Source of the DNA: Minisyncoccota bacterium
Lineage (GTDB): Bacteria > Patescibacteriota > Minisyncoccia > Phycocordibacterales > Phycocordibacteraceae
Length of the DNA: 64,000 bases
Direction of reading: 5' to 3'
Assembly: GCA_036405415.1 (NCBI GenBank)
Contig: DASWXP010000002.1
Coordinates: 125,862 to 189,861, forward strand
Part shown: piece by piece, positions 36,695 through 43,142 of the stretch
How the letters are laid out: each line of letters begins with the position of its first letter
Position numbering within the stretch: position 1 is the stretch's first letter
Translations under genes and position numbers: made by a program
The notes under the pieces: model-generated
What the model was told of the DNA's origin: nothing
Database searches by the model: none
Seen by the model: only the letters and a program-made list of their open reading frames with translations

Positions 36695-38098
36695 CTACGT
36701 AGGAAGATTGCTTGGTGCCTCGCTCGTCGTGGACTGGATGCGAGGCAGGCTCGGGGTCGTAACCGAGCTCGACGGCACATGATAGAGCGTCGCCATCTCC
36801 TCGACGCTCATGACGTTGTAGTCACCCACATATGGCGGATGGAAGAACGCACGCATGCGGTAGTACAAGAGCACCATGTGCTTCATATGCTCGCTATGAT
36901 GCCCATGCGGATCCTCCCACGGATAGTCGTTGAAATGGTTGTCCCAACGGCCGTCGGCAGGCATGAGCGAGTTCGCGTTCTCCGAGTTGAACGGCTTGAA
37001 GATGTTCACCAGCACGCCGCCCATGGTGCCCTGCGCCACGTCCTTCGGCGCGAGATAGATGCCGCGGATACCCACGTCGAACGCCTGCTTGCCGGTGTTC
37101 TTCTCGATAGCCTCGATGCGCGTCGCCATGGCGCGCGTCGGATTCGGATAGGAAACTGAGGTGCGCTTCACGCCGTTGGCATCCACGTACTCGTTCTCCA
37201 CCTTGTCTTCCTCGCGGAGCTTCTTAATCTCTTCCTTTGCCGCATCCTTCCAGGACGACGGCTTCGAGTCCCATGGCTTCCCCTGGTGCACACGCACCAC
37301 GAACTGGAGCCACAGCTGCTCCTTGGGACCCAAGGATCCCATGATTTCTATCATCTGCGCCAAGGGATCGATCTGCTCTTCTGGCTTCTGCACCTTATCA
37401 AGACCGTACTCTACATACGTCTTCAAAGGATACGGATCCGGCTTCGTCTTTCGGAACTCGAAGGCCGTCATGGTGTACGGCTCATGAGACGGATCAACCA
37501 GACGGCTGTAGTCCATGGCTTCGATAACCTCAACGCCAGGGTACTGCGCGTACAGGTAGCTCTCGAGCGCGCGGCGCCAGCCGGAGCGCAGCCATACGAA
37601 GTAGTGCACGCGGCCGCCGATGGATACGATCTCGTACGAATACCACGGGCGGGCGCGTCCCTGGATGATGCGCTTGTACCAGGTGTTCTCGCCTCCGGCG
37701 ATATGCATGCTCGAGAACACGGTCTCCATCGCAAGCGGCGTGCGCCTCGTGTCGCGAGGCATCTTGATCTCAAGCAGTACGGTCTCCTGCTTCGCGATCC
37801 ACGCGGACTTGTTCGCGTCGACAAACCTCCTGAATCCGAACGTGAACAGGAGCGCCGGGATCCAGAGCGGGGAAAGGAACAGGAGGAACTGGAAGTTCGT
37901 TATGGTCTGACTCGGCGAGAAGAAGAAGAAAGCGACGAGCTCCGCGCCGAACGCAATCAAAAGCGGCTTCAGCTCGACCGAGCTGCCCCCGTCTTCGTGC
38001 GCCTTGTGCATCCACCCTTTAATAAGGTCATGCCCCGGAAGCATGCTTTTGCTGTGTCCGCCTGCTGACATGCGCAAAGTATAGCAACGAAACGACAC
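36695..38098 (-). CDS. Hypothetical membrane-anchored protein (467 aa)
   Basis: N-terminal hydrophobic segments followed by a large soluble domain. No family recognised. Confidence 0.45.
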   Translation of the reverse strand: MSFRCYTLRMSAGGHSKSMLPGHDLIKGWMHKAHEDGGSSVELKPLLIAFGAELVAFFFFSPSQTITNFQFLLFLSPLWIPALLFTFGFRRFVDANKSAWIAKQETVLLEIKMPRDTRRTPLAMETVFSSMHIAGGENTWYKRIIQGRARPWYSYEIVSIGGRVHYFVWLRSGWRRALESYLYAQYPGVEVIEAMDYSRLVDPSHEPYTMTAFEFRKTKPDPYPLKTYVEYGLDKVQKPEEQIDPLAQMIEIMGSLGPKEQLWLQFVVRVHQGKPWDSKPSSWKDAAKEEIKKLREEDKVENEYVDANGVKRTSVSYPNPTRAMATRIEAIEKNTGKQAFDVGIRGIYLAPKDVAQGTMGGVLVNIFKPFNSENANSLMPADGRWDNHFNDYPWEDPHGHHSEHMKHMVLLYYRMRAFFHPPYVGDYNVMSVEEMATLYHVPSSSVTTPSLPRIQSTTSEAPSNLPT

Positions 38099-38140: not shown

Positions 38141-39250
38141 TTAAGCGACCTGGTAGGTGCCGTCCTTCTGACGCTTGAAGTGACGCGTGTCGCCGAGATT
38201 CACGAGGATGGTGTTGTCCTTCACGTAGCGGACCTTCTTTACTTCCTCGATGATCGCGTCGCGCGTGAGCGGCCCATGCTTCTCGAGCACCTCGCGGATC
38301 ACGTCGCGCACGACGCCCGGCTGGTAGCCCCACTCAGCGAGCGCGTAGAGGCCACGGCCCACGAGCACGAAGCGGGAATCCTTGATGAGCTCGTTATGGG
38401 TCGTCGCGACATGCGCCTTCTTATTGAAGACCTCAACGATGGAAGACGCAACGTCCGCAAAGTGCATCGGCTCGCCCTTCTGCTTGATGACGAGGTACGC
38501 GTAGTCGCGGATACCCTTGGTGCGAATCGCTGGCGCGTGCGCCTTGCCCCACTCAGAAAGCGGATTCTTTGCGATAGTCTTTGAAATGGTGAGCCAGCGC
38601 TTCAAGATCTCCTCGTTCTGATACGCCTCGTTCACGCCCTTCAGCTCCTCGAGGAAGCGGTTGATGATGTCGCCCTCAGAAAGGACCTCAGCATCGTCAA
38701 GCGTCTCGTAGAGGCGCGAGAGCGCGGTGTGCACCGCCTCAGCGGTCTTATGGTCGACGTGCCAGCGGGCGTAGAAGTCGTCGGTCTCGCGCTCGCGGAA
38801 GAACGCGCTGCCCACGACAAGCAGGAAACGGAAGCGGTTCTTCGCCTTCTCGTCTGACGCGAGACCTGCGAGAAGCACATCCTCAGGAACGATGCCGCCC
38901 TGTCCCTCGATATGGGACGCGAGCTCGTCGAACGCCTCCTGCGACTCCTTGAACGCCTTCGAATTGCGGATGGACTCGATGCCCGCAGCCTCGATCTGGC
39001 GCACGCGCTCGCGCGTGATGCTCCAGCGCTCGCCGATAGCCTCGAGCGTCTCGCGGCGCTGCGCCGTCCCGAGTCCGAAACGGAGAGTGAGCACCTCGCG
39101 GCCGCGCTCTGGAACCTCCGAAAGAAGCTTCTTCACGAGCGCTACCGTGTCGAACGAGAGGGATGCGCTGGCTGCCTTCGGTGCCTTCGCCTTCTTAGCG
39201 GCTGGGACCTTCTTTGAAGCGGCTGCCGGCTTCTTCGCTGATTTCGCCAT
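38141..39250 (-). CDS. DNA-binding protein with a histone-H1-like Lys/Ala-rich N-terminal tail and a sigma-70 region-4-like HTH
   Basis: N-terminus MAKSAKKPAAASKKVPAAKKAKAPKAAS; segment EVLTLRFGLGTAQRRETLEAIGERWSITRERVRQIEAAGIESIR resembles sigma70 region 4. About 230-aa C-terminal domain of unknown function. Confidence 0.5.
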   Translation of the reverse strand: MAKSAKKPAAASKKVPAAKKAKAPKAASASLSFDTVALVKKLLSEVPERGREVLTLRFGLGTAQRRETLEAIGERWSITRERVRQIEAAGIESIRNSKAFKESQEAFDELASHIEGQGGIVPEDVLLAGLASDEKAKNRFRFLLVVGSAFFRERETDDFYARWHVDHKTAEAVHTALSRLYETLDDAEVLSEGDIINRFLEELKGVNEAYQNEEILKRWLTISKTIAKNPLSEWGKAHAPAIRTKGIRDYAYLVIKQKGEPMHFADVASSIVEVFNKKAHVATTHNELIKDSRFVLVGRGLYALAEWGYQPGVVRDVIREVLEKHGPLTRDAIIEEVKKVRYVKDNTILVNLGDTRHFKRQKDGTYQVA

Positions 39251-39298: not shown

Positions 39299-42169
39299 CT
39301 AGCCTATAACCAGGCTGAGAATCCTCCCCGGGACGTACACAGCCTTCGATATTGCTCCGATTGTGAGGGCTTCACGTACGAATTGGAGGCCCCGAGCGGC
39401 CGCGATAACGTCCTCCTCCGAGGCAGTTTTCGGAAGGACGACTTCCCCGCGCTTCTTCCCGTTCACCTGCACTACTATCGTCATGCCGTCGTCTTCAGGC
39501 ACTTCGCGGGATGGCCACGAGGCTTGATGTACGGATCCCTCGTTGCCAAGCCCCTGCCAGAGATGATCGGCAAGATGCGGCGCAAGCGGCGCGAGCAGCC
39601 GCAAGAGCTCGCCATACGCTTCCTTCGATACCTGCTCCTGCTTCTCGAGATCGCGCACGAGCACCATGAGCGCCGAGATGGCGGTGTTGTACTTGAAGCG
39701 CTCGATATCCTCAGACACCTTCGCCGTTGCCTGCGCGAGTGCCTTCGCTTCGGCAGGTGCCGCCTCTCCTTCTATGACCTTCTCCTTGAGCGCATAGATG
39801 CGGTCGAGGAACTTGCGCATGGCTGTCGCGCCATCTAGGTTCCAAGGATAGGTGCCCGGCTCGTTGTACGGGCCGATGAAGGCGAGGTACATGCGTACCG
39901 CGTCCGCGCCGAGCTCCTTCACGACGGAATCCGGATTAATTACGTTGCCTTTGGATTTCGACATCTTCGCGCCGTCAGGACCGAGGATGAGACCGCGGTT
40001 GAAGCGCTCTACGAAGGGCTCCGCTACCGGCACGAGCGCGAGATCGTACAGCGCCTTCACGAAGAAGCGCGAGTAGAGAAGGTGCATGGTGGTGTGCTCG
40101 CTGCCGCCTGAATAGCGGTTCACCGGCAGCCACCGCTTCATGACGGACTGGTCCGAGAAGTCATGCTCGTCCTTAGGATCCAGGTACCTGAGGAAGTACC
40201 ACGAGGAATCCACGAAGGTGTCGAGCGTATCGTACTCCGGGGTCCAGCCCTCGCCGAAGATGCGCGTTACGCGCTCCTGAAGCTCCCTTGAGGTTGCAAG
40301 CGGCGACTTGCCGGACGGCGTGAAGTCGACGTCCGTCGGGAGAAGCCACGGCAGGTGTTCCGCTGGAATGACATGCGGATTGCCTTCGGGATCGTATACG
40401 ACCGGTATCGGGCAGCCCCAGTACCGCTGGCGCGACACGAGCCAGTCACGAAGGCGATAGTTCGTTACCTTCTCGCCGCCGACGAACGCGATGATGTCGT
40501 CGATCGCCTCGCGGTTGTCGCGGCCAGAAAACTCGCCTGAATTCCTGAGAAGACCGTCCCCTCCGTACGCGCCTGGCGTAAGGAATCGCGCGAGCGCGTA
40601 GCTATGAAGCGGATCCTTCACGTCGCGAATCGCGTCCGCAAAGGGAACCCATTCAACCTCGAACTTACCTTTCTCGTCCTCTTCGAGCTTCGGTTCTTCG
40701 CACGCCTCACTCTTCAAGCGGAAATGAAGGAGCGTGGTATGCGCTACCCATGCCTTATTCTTCGAGTGCGCGAAGTACTCGTGATGTACCTGCTCCTGGG
40801 CACGCTCTACAAGCTCGAGATCCGTGTATCCGGTTTCCTCAGCGATCTCTCGCATGGCTGTGTATGCAGGATCCTCGCCTTCTTCCGCGGTACCGCCGAC
40901 GGTAAGCCGTCCGCCAAGCTCGGGCCTCCAGTGGATAGTGAGCACCTTTCCTTCGTGCTCGACGATCGCGACGATCTTCTCCTTATCTTCCGGATTCTCC
41001 TGCTTGGATCCTGTTATCGGATCGATAACGCGTCGCACCGAGAGATTCATCTTCTTCGCGAACTCAAAATCACGCTCGTCATGCGCCGGTACTGCCATGA
41101 CCGCTCCCGTGCCGTATGACGCGAGCACGTAATCTGCTACGTATACCGGAATCTCTTCTTGCGTAGCGGGATTAATAGCGCTGATTCCCTCGAGGCGTAC
41201 GCCCGTCTTCTCCTTGTTCTCCTGACGCTCGCGCTCGGTCTTCTTTTGCGCGGCTTCAACGTACGCACGGACCTCGTCCTTATTTAAAACTGCGTCGTCA
41301 TGCGGAGTGTCCCAGGCGGCGCGCACCCACGGGTGCTCCGGAGCAAGCACGAGATAAGTCGCGCCGAAGATAGTGTCGGGGCGCGTCGTGAACACGGAGA
41401 CTTGAGACGGATTTCCGTCCTCGTCTCGCCAGGCATCCTTCTCTTCGTTCCCGAACACGAGACGGAAGGGGATCCGGGCGCCCTCTGACTTTCCTATCCA
41501 CGCGCGCTGCGCGTCCTTGATGTCCTCGCGCCACGGAAGCGGATCGAGGTCCGTGATAAGGCGGTCCGCGTACTTCGTGATGCCCATGAACCACTGCGTG
41601 AGGTTCTTCTCCTCGACCTCGGTGCCGCAGCGCTCGCACTTCCCATCGTTCACCTGCTCGTTGGCGAGCACGGTCTGGTCCTTCGGGCACCATTTGACCG
41701 GTGCGTTCTTCCGGTACGCGAGCCCGTGATCATAGAGCTTCGTGAAGAGCCACTGCGTCCACTTGTAGTACTCAGGGCTCGAGGTAACCACCTCCTTGGA
41801 CCAATCAACCGAAGTTCCCATGGAGCGTACCTGTGCGCGCATGGTCTCCATATTCGCGTTCGTCCACGCTGCAGGATCCTTCCCGTACTTTATGGCGGCG
41901 TTCTCCGCAGGAAGCCCGAAGGAATCGAAGCCCATCGGGAACAGGACGTTCTTTCCCTGCATGCGCAGCATGCGCGCGAAGATATCCGTGAGCGCGAACG
42001 CGTACCAGTGCCCGATATGAAGGTCTCCCGAAGGGTATGGGAACTCGAAGAGGAGGTAGTAGGGATCACGATCAGTATCGGCAAGGTCCGCGCGATAGAG
42101 ATCGAGCTCCTGCCAGCGCGCCTGCTGCGCCTTCTCGATCTCCTGATGGTCGAATCGCTCGCGCGCCAT
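39299..42169 (-). CDS. leuS: Leucine--tRNA ligase carrying an inserted NUDIX hydrolase domain
   Basis: HIGH (HIGH at residues ~51-54), CP1 editing motifs TTRPDT and AVPAHDERD, KMSKS (KMSKSKGN), an anticodon-binding domain, 956 aa. An extra ~140-aa segment with a perfect Nudix box lies between the CP1 exit and the conserved NSGEF region. Confidence 0.9.
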   Translation of the reverse strand: MARERFDHQEIEKAQQARWQELDLYRADLADTDRDPYYLLFEFPYPSGDLHIGHWYAFALTDIFARMLRMQGKNVLFPMGFDSFGLPAENAAIKYGKDPAAWTNANMETMRAQVRSMGTSVDWSKEVVTSSPEYYKWTQWLFTKLYDHGLAYRKNAPVKWCPKDQTVLANEQVNDGKCERCGTEVEEKNLTQWFMGITKYADRLITDLDPLPWREDIKDAQRAWIGKSEGARIPFRLVFGNEEKDAWRDEDGNPSQVSVFTTRPDTIFGATYLVLAPEHPWVRAAWDTPHDDAVLNKDEVRAYVEAAQKKTERERQENKEKTGVRLEGISAINPATQEEIPVYVADYVLASYGTGAVMAVPAHDERDFEFAKKMNLSVRRVIDPITGSKQENPEDKEKIVAIVEHEGKVLTIHWRPELGGRLTVGGTAEEGEDPAYTAMREIAEETGYTDLELVERAQEQVHHEYFAHSKNKAWVAHTTLLHFRLKSEACEEPKLEEDEKGKFEVEWVPFADAIRDVKDPLHSYALARFLTPGAYGGDGLLRNSGEFSGRDNREAIDDIIAFVGGEKVTNYRLRDWLVSRQRYWGCPIPVVYDPEGNPHVIPAEHLPWLLPTDVDFTPSGKSPLATSRELQERVTRIFGEGWTPEYDTLDTFVDSSWYFLRYLDPKDEHDFSDQSVMKRWLPVNRYSGGSEHTTMHLLYSRFFVKALYDLALVPVAEPFVERFNRGLILGPDGAKMSKSKGNVINPDSVVKELGADAVRMYLAFIGPYNEPGTYPWNLDGATAMRKFLDRIYALKEKVIEGEAAPAEAKALAQATAKVSEDIERFKYNTAISALMVLVRDLEKQEQVSKEAYGELLRLLAPLAPHLADHLWQGLGNEGSVHQASWPSREVPEDDGMTIVVQVNGKKRGEVVLPKTASEEDVIAAARGLQFVREALTIGAISKAVYVPGRILSLVIG
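40580..40996 (-). other. NUDIX hydrolase domain inserted within leuS (residues ~392-530)
   Basis: Nudix box GTAEEGEDPAYTAMREIAEETGY fits GX5EX7REUXEEXGU exactly. E. coli LeuRS has only about 25 residues at the equivalent position ([30 protein letters not shown]). Checked at the nucleotide level around 40880-40930. Confidence 0.7.
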
Positions 42170-42170
42170 G

Positions 42171-43142
42171 CTAGCGGACCGGCTTTCCGAACGGCGGGTA
42201 GCGCTCAGGGTCTATGGTGCGCGAGAAGCACACCTCGCCAGCTCCATGCTGCCAGTTCTCGTCCGGCATCATGCTCGGGTACGATACGTCGCGCGGGAAC
42301 GCGCCCTGGCCCTTCGTGTCAGGAGTCTCTTGGCTGAATACCGCGCAGAGATCGAACGAGCTGTCGCCCGTGCGTTCGTAGCGATACGGCGCGCCCGTCT
42401 CAGGATCCACCGGGACCATGAAGCTCGAAAGCGGATCATTAAGCTCCGCGATATCCGCCGGAACCGCTTCCTTCGACTGCCAGAAGTTCACGATCTGGTA
42501 CTGGATGGACTGGAGGTCCGAGACGCGCTGCTCGTCGTAGCGAAGTTCGCGGATGGTGCTCGGCGTACCTATAACGAAGAATCCGGCCGCAACCGCGGCA
42601 AGTGCGAGCACACCCGCGCCTGCGCCAACGAGATCCGCCTTCTTCGGATGCGCTGCCCAGTATCCCTTGAGATCCGCGAGGAAGTGGAGGAACACGCCGA
42701 GCGCTACCAGGAGCACGACTGCTACCTTGAGGCCGAAGCGGATCGAGAGCTCGCCGCCGAGGAAGGTGGTGATGAGCGTGATGAGATCGACGAGAATAAC
42801 CGCGATCGCGATGAACACCGTGAGCACGAGCGCCCAGCGACGCGCCCAGATATTCGCCTTGCCTGGCTCGTTCGCGATAGAGCCACGGATGATGCGAAGG
42901 AGGATGATCGTCGTCGGAACCAGCACGATCACCCCTGCCATCGCGGCACGCACCGCTCCGCCGTACGGATCGCCCCAGTATGCGAGCGGATCCGGGAACG
43001 CATGGTTCACGTACTCGAAGAGGAGCGTGATGAGCGAGAGCACCGAACCGTAGAGCGCGATGACCGCGCCAGCCCAGAGGAAGAAATCACGGGGAGTCGT
43101 ACGTGTAGGTGCCTGTTCCATAGTGCGCGGATTATACCACAA
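42171..43142 (-). CDS. Hypothetical polytopic membrane protein (323 aa)
   Basis: 5-6 TM helices plus a soluble C-terminal domain. Its stop abuts the leuS start, so likely the same operon. Confidence 0.5.
   Translation of the reverse strand: MWYNPRTMEQAPTRTTPRDFFLWAGAVIALYGSVLSLITLLFEYVNHAFPDPLAYWGDPYGGAVRAAMAGVIVLVPTTIILLRIIRGSIANEPGKANIWARRWALVLTVFIAIAVILVDLITLITTFLGGELSIRFGLKVAVVLLVALGVFLHFLADLKGYWAAHPKKADLVGAGAGVLALAAVAAGFFVIGTPSTIRELRYDEQRVSDLQSIQYQIVNFWQSKEAVPADIAELNDPLSSFMVPVDPETGAPYRYERTGDSSFDLCAVFSQETPDTKGQGAFPRDVSYPSMMPDENWQHGAGEVCFSRTIDPERYPPFGKPVR

Follow-up and report, generated by a model that had tools for sequence, protein, structure and literature searches.

Why would an essential aminoacyl-tRNA synthetase carry a second enzyme domain inside the domain that edits its products? 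This question is raised by the leuS gene in a 64,000-nucleotide stretch of a Minisyncoccota bacterium genome (GenBank assembly GCA_036405415.1, contig DASWXP010000002.1, positions 125,862 to 189,861 of the forward strand; hereafter the window), which encodes a leucyl-tRNA synthetase (LeuRS) with an inserted Nudix hydrolase domain. The insert had first been noticed in an inspection of the letters alone, made without database searches (hereafter the sequence-only reading). Our analysis places a complete Nudix-fold domain in a surface loop of the CP1 editing domain and assigns it to a separate Nudix subfamily with a specific tie to aminoacyl-tRNA synthetases in reduced-genome microbes, namely Patescibacteria of the candidate phyla radiation (CPR), gut Bacilli and DPANN-like archaea. 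Both building blocks belong to textbook families, and public databases already contain the proteins; what is new is the nested second catalytic domain in a LeuRS and the synthetase-associated Nudix subfamily.

The identity of the insert is well defined. Its Nudix box, GTAEEGEDPAYTAMREIAEETGY, is the only match to the box pattern in the entire window, and the sequence-only reading had rightly called it perfect. The Pfam model NUDIX (PF00293; gathering score 21.1) matches the whole LeuRS with 46.3 bits (E=5.4e-12), and the segment excised by that reading reaches 51.6 bits when searched on its own. The insert has the alpha/beta/alpha sandwich of the Nudix fold, and an AlphaFold2 model of the full-length LeuRS, with a mean predicted local distance difference test (pLDDT) score of 85, gives the insert values of 87–94 and is confident across both junctions.

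Alignment to the LeuRS of Thermus thermophilus places the insertion exactly. Residue 384 of the window protein corresponds to T. thermophilus residue 364 and residue 534 to residue 376, so that 149 residues stand in place of 11 (T. thermophilus 365–375). An insert-less relative of 810 aa (P0080), which is 74% identical, has a linker of about 10 aa at the same point. The interval of 40580–40996 given by the sequence-only reading lies inside the domain, and the true insert is slightly wider on both sides according to these two comparisons (Table 1). The same reading had placed the Nudix segment after the CP1 exit. The insert itself is real, but it lies within CP1: the Pfam model of the LeuRS editing domain (tRNA-synt_1_2; aa 222–392, 180.7 bits) is matched only over positions 1–150 of 185 before the insert, and five isolated, independently crystallized CP1 constructs from other bacteria (2ajg, 7n11, 3o0a, 4k47 and 5agr) run 45–55 residues past the insertion point. 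The Nudix domain is therefore nested inside CP1.

The host protein is a complete bacterial-type LeuRS with intact synthetic and editing motifs. The NCBIfam model leuS_bact (TIGR00396) gives 858.5 bits (cut-off 548.4), in two stretches split by the insert, and the closest match in the PDB is T. thermophilus LeuRS (1h3n, E=7e-193). Pfam recognizes tRNA-synt_1, tRNA-synt_1_2 and Anticodon_1. All canonical elements named in the sequence-only reading (HIGH, TTRPDT, AHDERD, KMSKS and the anticodon-binding domain) were found, and its open reading frame (ORF) agrees with the ORF listing on the minus strand. Both CP1 editing motifs are intact and invariant among 73 aligned homologues, including the editing residues H363, D364, R366 and D367.

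Table 1 Features of the leuS locus in window coordinates (residue numbers refer to the window LeuRS)
Feature	Residues	Coordinates	Strand	Basis or remark
leuS ORF, bacterial-type LeuRS with nested Nudix	956 aa	39299..42169	-	ORF listing
Catalytic (Rossmann) domain, N-terminal part	1-221	41507..42169	-	Pfam tRNA-synt_1, aa 16-219
HIGH motif	51-54	42008-42019	-	verified in sequence
CP1 editing domain, N-terminal and core part	222-384	41018..41506	-	Pfam tRNA-synt_1_2
T-rich motif TTRPDT	261-266	41372-41389	-	verified
AHDERD motif with conserved Asp	362-367	41069-41086	-	verified
Inserted Nudix hydrolase domain	385-533 (149 aa)	40571..41017	-	alignment to T. thermophilus LeuRS
Nudix box GTAEEGEDPAYTAMREIAEETGY, catalytic metal-binding motif	426-448	40826..40894	-	fits GX5EX7REUXEEXGU exactly
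CP1 C-terminal remainder	534-~569	40463..40570	-	LeuRS alignment resumes right after insert; C-terminal boundary approximate
NSGEF	543-547	40529-40543	-	verified
GPDG tetrapeptide and KMSKS loop	730-739 (KMSKS 735-739)	39953..39982	-	motifs verified
Anticodon-binding domain	811-919	39413..39739	-	Pfam Anticodon_1, 67 bits
Upstream DUF5671 gene		42171..43142	-	Pfam DUF5671, 46.6 bits

The overall layout is that of class Ia synthetases, as seen in the LeuRS structures of T. thermophilus (1H3N/2BYT) and Escherichia coli (4AQ7): the HIGH motif, the ZN region, the CP1 domain with its T-rich motif and conserved aspartate, KMSKS, and the anticodon-binding and C-terminal domains are common to all of them. 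Unlike these enzymes, the window LeuRS has the Nudix domain in place of the 11-residue CP1 loop, and GPDG in place of the leucine-specific domain. The latter domain, which precedes KMSKS, is typical of bacterial LeuRS, though not universal. In the alignment, residues 593–635 of T. thermophilus LeuRS have no counterpart in the window protein. The GPDG tetrapeptide resembles the GKDG of Mycoplasma mobile LeuRS, which likewise takes the place of a leucine-specific domain in that enzyme (PMC3643597).

The architecture recurs far beyond the window. PF00293 is present in 119/120 of the best LeuRS homologues (62–81% identity), which were drawn from NCBI, JGI, ENA and Logan assemblies and are labelled Paceibacterota, Parcubacteria, Kaiserbacteria or Patescibacteria in the source databases; the sequence-only reading had asked whether relatives share the insert, and nearly all of them do. 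When one genome was scanned for each GTDB species, relatives of the insert proved to be encoded in at least 306 genomes; in 80/80 loci retrieved, the N-terminal part of LeuRS is followed by the Nudix domain and then by the C-terminal part of LeuRS, with the insertion at an unchanged position. The gene order of the window, with YchF, a methyltransferase, DUF5671, leuS and a Sigma70_r4/HARE-HTH protein, is common to related contigs. An assembly chimera or a frameshift artefact, for which a slightly lower G+C content of the insert (0.566 vs 0.602) is the only hint, is thus of negligible probability: the gene is one uninterrupted ORF, its synteny is conserved, and its architecture is found in hundreds of independent assemblies from several sources. 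We rejected misassembly on the grounds of this recurrence and synteny, which bears out the sequence-only reading on this point.

Further carriers include many low-GC (25–33%) metagenome-assembled genomes from the gut that are labelled Bacilli, Tenericutes, Mycoplasmatota or Erysipelotrichaceae, among them Candidatus Onthousia (Bacillota; Bacilli in the NCBI taxonomy). With carriers in both Patescibacteria and gut Bacilli, the LeuRS-Nudix architecture is therefore found in two or more phyla of bacteria with reduced genomes.

The insert is apparently active as a hydrolase, judging from its pattern of conservation. In 121 aligned sequences, the box residues are retained as G426 in 120, E432 in 113 (with Q in seven more), R440 in 113, E441, E444 and E445 in 120 each, and G447 in 118; the sole sequence without box residues is the insert-less P0080. 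Across 25 inserts that are 18–74% identical to that of the window, G42, E57, E60, E61, G63, K86 and W123 (insert numbering) are invariant, the two outside the box being a lysine and a tryptophan (K470 and W507 in LeuRS numbering). Similarly, the best 150 cluster representatives of the subfamily (see below) contain 162 Nudix domains: the box is strict in 115 of them, and a further 36 retain its ExxEE core. Because the metal-binding core REUxEE is near-invariant while the inserts diverge to 22–30% identity, the domain is under selection as an enzyme. These data bear on the alternative of a non-catalytic module, such as a nucleotide-sensing, regulatory or structural/tRNA-binding appendage comparable to NrtR-type regulators. 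Some second copies in multi-copy LeuRS would fit such a role, having Gln instead of the first box Glu and Ala, Lys or Gln instead of the Arg. However, the window copy has a perfect box, and the three metal-binding glutamates are kept in 120/121 close homologues and are invariant across very divergent inserts, which makes a non-catalytic role very unlikely.

The association with Nudix domains is peculiar neither to the leuS of the window nor to LeuRS in general. A profile built from the insert was run against 1.84 billion cluster representatives and yielded 11,453 matches at E<=1e-3; of these, 559 reached E<=1e-10 and 157 reached E<=1e-30. The best 150 representatives were classified with custom hidden Markov models (HMMs) of the LeuRS N-terminal part, the LeuRS C-terminal part and the insert. 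Among these, members of the same subfamily are inserted at no fewer than four places in LeuRS: the main one in CP1, a position just before CP1 (~aa 212), the loop preceding the T-rich motif (~aa 245–265) and the C-terminal half (~aa 628–644). Tandem copies also occur, up to three per LeuRS (P0121, P0122), with the ExxEE core kept in each of them.

Other synthetases carry the same subfamily. P0263 is a prolyl-tRNA synthetase (ProRS; TIGR00408, 586 bits) with the Nudix domain between its anticodon-binding and C-terminal domains. This arrangement was found in five independent clusters, with 126–163 bits against the LeuRS-insert profile, using the whole ProRS as a query (the ProRS Nudix segment alone gave no matches). 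The nearest insert-less relatives of these clusters are annotated as Nanoarchaeota or Woesearchaeota, and the carriers are DPANN-like archaea. In addition, the subfamily is probably inserted in a methionyl-tRNA synthetase (MetRS) of a genome that apparently reads UGA as glycine. The member P0216 has in-frame TGA codons on either side and, with UGA read as Gly, becomes a Nudix domain inserted in MetRS; we therefore rejected it as a stand-alone gene. On contig L094, once TGA (at nt 25, 550 and 1216) is read as Gly, three successive ORFs become a single MetRS that contains a Nudix insert, and on L097 conserved glycines of the Nudix box itself are encoded by TGA, so that recoded genomes do carry the subfamily. 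This codon usage agrees with genetic code 25, as used by Gracilibacteria/Absconditabacteria.

Genuinely stand-alone members are 154–206 aa long, and 5/10 of those examined lie within 2–16 nt of a synthetase gene. One is found upstream of an insert-carrying leuS (P0135) and another upstream of an insert-less leuS (P0181; TIGR00396, 946 bits in one stretch); both contigs have the synteny of the window in the form YchF-DUF5671-Nudix-leuS, with the separate Nudix gene between DUF5671 and leuS. A third is located upstream of valS (P0205; 767 bits for the synthetase), a fourth (P0186) follows argS and is separated from ileS by a single small ORF, and a fifth is found downstream of proS (P0246). The other members examined lie beside fpg, beside another Nudix gene or in uninformative contexts. 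With about 20 synthetase genes among 600–1000 genes, chance adjacency is expected in ~5–7% of cases, and the binomial probability of 5/10 is ~3e-4, for cases that are not phylogenetically independent. A pair that is fused in some genomes and adjacent in others is a classic sign of a functional link, here between the Nudix subfamily and the synthetases. Moreover, the several LeuRS sites, the ProRS and probable MetRS insertions and the operonic forms argue against a role that needs LeuRS-specific geometry.

As to the evolution of the insert, the 120 close homologues divide into 75 with an insert resembling that of the window (type A) and 44–45 with divergent ones (type B). Within types and between them, the LeuRS bodies show the same degree of similarity, with mutual identities of 70.0% (A-A), 70.9% (B-B) and 70.0% (A-B), whereas the inserts are 67.5%, 42.3% and 29.1% identical, respectively; the two insert types are thus older than the divergence of the bodies that carry them. 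On a crude neighbour-joining tree of the bodies, the insert type changes 26 times, compared to a mean of 36 and a minimum of 30 for random labels, and in 28/120 sequences the nearest body neighbour bears the other type. Conversely, distant Bacilli LeuRS whose bodies are only 37–50% identical have type-A inserts that are 41–48% identical to that of the window. This suggests that the insert type is uncoupled from the phylogeny of the LeuRS body and that the same site has been re-occupied repeatedly by paralogous Nudix domains, for which the adjacent stand-alone genes, present in each type, are plausible donors. Vertical inheritance of a fast-evolving insert was rejected as the sole cause of the two types, given bodies at ~70% throughout and inserts at 67% vs 29%.

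Comparison with characterized Nudix enzymes gives a mixed picture. None of the curated Nudix subfamily thresholds of NCBIfam is reached by the insert: the best match is the dihydroneopterin triphosphate diphosphatase NudB (NF006961) with 37.8 bits vs a cut-off of 103, followed by RppH (NF001938 and NF001936) with 23.1 and 18.2 bits vs 116 and 118, YtkD with 21.7 vs 154 and MutT1 with 19 vs 475. The closest structural superpositions are with the diadenosine tetraphosphate (Ap4A) hydrolase of Aquifex (template modelling (TM) score 0.71–0.72) and with RppH (0.71). MutT1, NudI, YmfB and the decapping effectors AvrM14 and oomycete WY-Nudix are also among the structural neighbours, and the ADP-ribose pyrophosphatase of T. 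thermophilus reaches a Foldseek TM score of only 0.51–0.57 despite good E-values. A proline 15–16 residues after the box is reportedly a signature of ADP-ribose pyrophosphatases (Dunn and colleagues, 1999); the insert of the window lacks it and has His and Glu at +15/+16. Taken by sequence and structure, the neighbours are a mixture of diadenosine polyphosphate (ApnA), RNA-end, nucleoside triphosphate (NTP) and ADP-sugar hydrolases. The insert shares only 12–23% identity with Aquifex aq_158 (3I7U), T. thermophilus Ndx1 (1VC8), Mycobacterium tuberculosis Rv2985 (9CXX), lupin Ap4A hydrolase (1F3Y) and E. coli RppH (4S2W). It differs from the ApnA hydrolases and RppH in having invariant residues of its own (W414, K470, E499 and W507) and in its setting, since those are free housekeeping enzymes, whereas the insert subfamily is embedded in, or operonic with, synthetases.

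What could a Nudix enzyme do at a synthetase? Partner, site and copy number vary and operonic genes exist, so that co-localization and co-expression with the synthetase, rather than a fixed geometry, would be the selected property, and this is probably the case. The partner synthetases share ATP-dependent aminoacyl-adenylate chemistry and tRNA binding, and for this reason we favour a tethered pyrophosphohydrolase. Tentatively, and with somewhat less than even confidence, we propose that the insert is a nucleoside-polyphosphate hydrolase that clears Ap4A-type by-products of the synthetase, the identity of the substrate being hypothetical. In such a scheme, ATP or another NTP would attack the enzyme-bound adenylate to give Ap4A, Ap3A or Ap4N, and the tethered, Mg2+-dependent Nudix domain would destroy these ApnN by-products at the synthetase. 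ATP and AMP would thereby be returned to organisms unable to make nucleotides de novo, and alarmones or precursors of nucleoside-tetraphosphate (Np4) caps would be kept from building up. Synthetases are indeed a main source of Ap4A/ApnN via the aminoacyl-adenylate, and Nudix hydrolases such as RppH and Aquifex aq_158 degrade Ap4A (PMC7705103, PMC10148737). Among the three roles first proposed by the sequence-only reading, which were Ap4A turnover, editing of aminoacyl-adenylates and RNA decapping, Ap4A turnover is the most plausible. Several points weigh against it, however. According to what Goerlich and colleagues are said to have found in 1982, arginyl-tRNA synthetase (ArgRS) is not an Ap4A producer, and LeuRS, valyl-tRNA synthetase and ProRS are not the strongest ones. 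A tyrosine 16–18 residues after the box is reportedly a signature of ApnA hydrolases (Dunn and colleagues, 1999); the corresponding position (Y465, at +17) is aromatic, with Tyr in 84 and Phe in 35 of the 121 sequences, and so offers at most a lead. Finally, inserts of unrelated hydrolases in LeuRS (haloacid dehalogenase (HAD)-like and alpha/beta serine hydrolase) and in isoleucyl-tRNA synthetase (IleRS; histidine phosphatase) could mean generic hitch-hiking of domains, and an fpg neighbour of one stand-alone member (P0166) hints at a MutT-like role for some members.

These last points lead to the alternative that the domain is a house-cleaning NTP pyrophosphatase of the MutT/NudB/NudI kind, which hitch-hikes in or beside highly expressed, essential synthetase genes. 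The gain would lie in expression and stoichiometry in streamlined genomes, with no chemical tie to aminoacylation. NudB as the best NCBIfam match, MutT1, NudI and YmfB among the structural neighbours, the position of P0166 next to fpg/MutM, the variable insertion site and the seemingly general acceptance of small hydrolase domains by LeuRS and IleRS would all fit. Nevertheless, we consider it somewhat unlikely: nearly all non-small proteins among the best 150 representatives are LeuRS and no other class of fusion partner appears there, so the tie is specific to synthetases (LeuRS, ProRS and MetRS as hosts; leuS, valS, argS/ileS and proS as neighbours) and does not extend to other large essential genes. 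Contig L090 has a different Nudix gene by dUTPase and thymidylate kinase, whereas its synthetase-type Nudix lies between argS and ileS, and three copies in one LeuRS are hard to account for by expression alone. Another possibility is an enzyme acting on the ends of synthetase-bound tRNA, either at the 5' end in the manner of RppH (on a pyrophosphate or an Np4/NAD cap) or at the 3' end by removal of a pyrophosphate from CCA. The 3' pyrophosphate would be of the kind added by toxic RelA-SpoT-homologue enzymes, and the HAD and histidine-phosphatase modules would then remove the remaining phosphate. Every partner enzyme binds tRNA, most insertion sites in LeuRS are within or next to CP1, where the CCA end is handled, and phosphatase modules recur in the same synthetases; RppH, AvrM14 and oomycete WY-Nudix are close structural neighbours, and the adjacency to argS suits a tRNA-centred role better than an Ap4A-centred one. 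On the other side, the RppH models of NCBIfam remain far below their cut-offs, the variable sites, the ProRS position between anticodon-binding and C-terminal domains and the stand-alone forms speak against a fixed tRNA-end geometry, and we know of no Nudix enzyme that repairs 3'-pyrophosphorylated tRNA. Altogether, action on tRNA ends appears distinctly unlikely. Extra pre-transfer editing, in which the Nudix domain would hydrolyse mis-activated aminoacyl-adenylates, has its location within the editing domain in its favour. Nudix substrates are nucleoside diphosphates linked to a further moiety X, whereas an aminoacyl-adenylate is an acyl-phosphate mixed anhydride, which makes this suggestion of the sequence-only reading chemically unlikely. 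As the same domain is also found at an unrelated ProRS site, beside argS and as a free protein, and as the editing motifs of LeuRS are intact and need no replacement, we regard this role as highly improbable.

The other hydrolase modules deserve a closer description. The same HAD-like module (YLIFDFDGV.GD..., VVSSGS, YYFTDTKAD) occurs at three LeuRS sites, namely immediately before the Nudix domain, immediately after it and in the C-terminal half (P0024, aa ~374–600; L019; P0142, aa ~645–860, with 44.9 bits for Pfam HAD_2). Alpha/beta serine-hydrolase modules (Pfam Ser_hydrolase, Abhydrolase_6) are located close to where CP1 begins, ahead of the T-rich motif, in addition to the Nudix domain, as one copy in P0093 (aa ~235–400) and as two tandem copies in the N-terminal 420 aa of P0213. 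For these two kinds of inserts in the relatives, NCBIfam matched no specific function. The IleRS of L090 (5094–8498; TIGR00392, 864 bits in two stretches) has a His_Phos_1 insert at ~aa 513–690 and lies one small ORF downstream of argS and the synthetase-type Nudix gene. P0166 is situated 5 nt downstream of fpg (MutM) on two contigs (L088:3016-4513, L089:110-1607).

These modules appear to move between sites and synthetases through paralogue replacement. One broader interpretation, which we regard as rather unlikely at present, is an unrecognized class of synthetase-tethered accessory hydrolases in ultra-small symbiotic prokaryotes, with a Nudix core and perhaps HAD, histidine-phosphatase and alpha/beta-hydrolase modules acting as a joint clearance or repair system. 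Such a system may recycle nucleotides stepwise, from ApnN to NTP/NMP and further to nucleoside and phosphate or pyrophosphate, or it may repair damaged or toxin-modified tRNA ends, for example a 3'-pyrophosphate at CCA, by the Nudix enzyme and then a phosphatase. A possible parallel is mycobacterial MutT1 (5GG5/6M6Y), in which a similar Nudix domain (TM score ~0.70) stands alongside a histidine phosphatase. MutT1 is a free, bifunctional two-domain enzyme, whereas HAD and histidine-phosphatase modules are here inserted separately into loops of the same or neighbouring synthetases.

Bacterial aminoacyl-tRNA synthetases are usually seen as fixed architectures, and added domains are mostly eukaryotic and mostly non-catalytic. 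A precedent is found in NCBIfam: the model ileS_w_GNAT (NF040702) describes a bacterial class Ia synthetase with an extra catalytic domain that modifies small molecules. It differs in both the domain (GNAT) and the host (IleRS), and the window LeuRS scores far below its cut-off. In agreement with the sequence-only reading, which knew of no LeuRS with a Nudix module, no description of a Nudix-bearing LeuRS or of the link between this Nudix subfamily and synthetases was found in the full-text literature searched, which covers few subscription journals, so that a prior description is possible. For the synthetase field, the unexpected part is the breadth of the phenomenon: in hundreds of uncultured species, an essential synthetase has a second, apparently active enzyme nested in its editing domain, insertions are multi-site and multi-copy, and the subfamily tracks synthetases of both classes in Bacteria and Archaea.

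Dedicated hydrolases, some of them Nudix enzymes, are known to remove synthetase-made dinucleoside polyphosphates and Np4 caps, as in the LysRS-Ap4A-NUDT2/HINT1 axis and with ApaH, RppH and YqeK (PMC7705103, PMC10148737, PMC13010140). In those systems, producer and hydrolase are separate and unlinked, whereas the Nudix domain described here is fused to, or operonic with, the producers. If degradation of Ap4A-type compounds proved true, producer and destroyer would here be fused in nature, which would offer an experimental handle on the question whether dinucleoside polyphosphates are signals or waste. Action on tRNA ends would, in turn, represent a new kind of tRNA quality control.

The insert may also affect annotation. 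Many of the LeuRS homologues are named 'class I tRNA ligase family protein' by NCBI instead of leucine--tRNA ligase, while some are named leucyl-tRNA synthetase. The split LeuRS HMM match may explain this vague naming, and a systematic under-annotation of leuS in CPR genomes is possible, which could bias automated metabolic reconstructions of these genomes. Downstream of leuS in the window, a 467-aa ORF (36695–38098, minus strand) has no Pfam or NCBIfam match, and its syntenic gene on a related contig is listed as DUF8128. The 369-aa neighbour (38141–39250, minus strand) combines Sigma70_r4 with a HARE-HTH domain.

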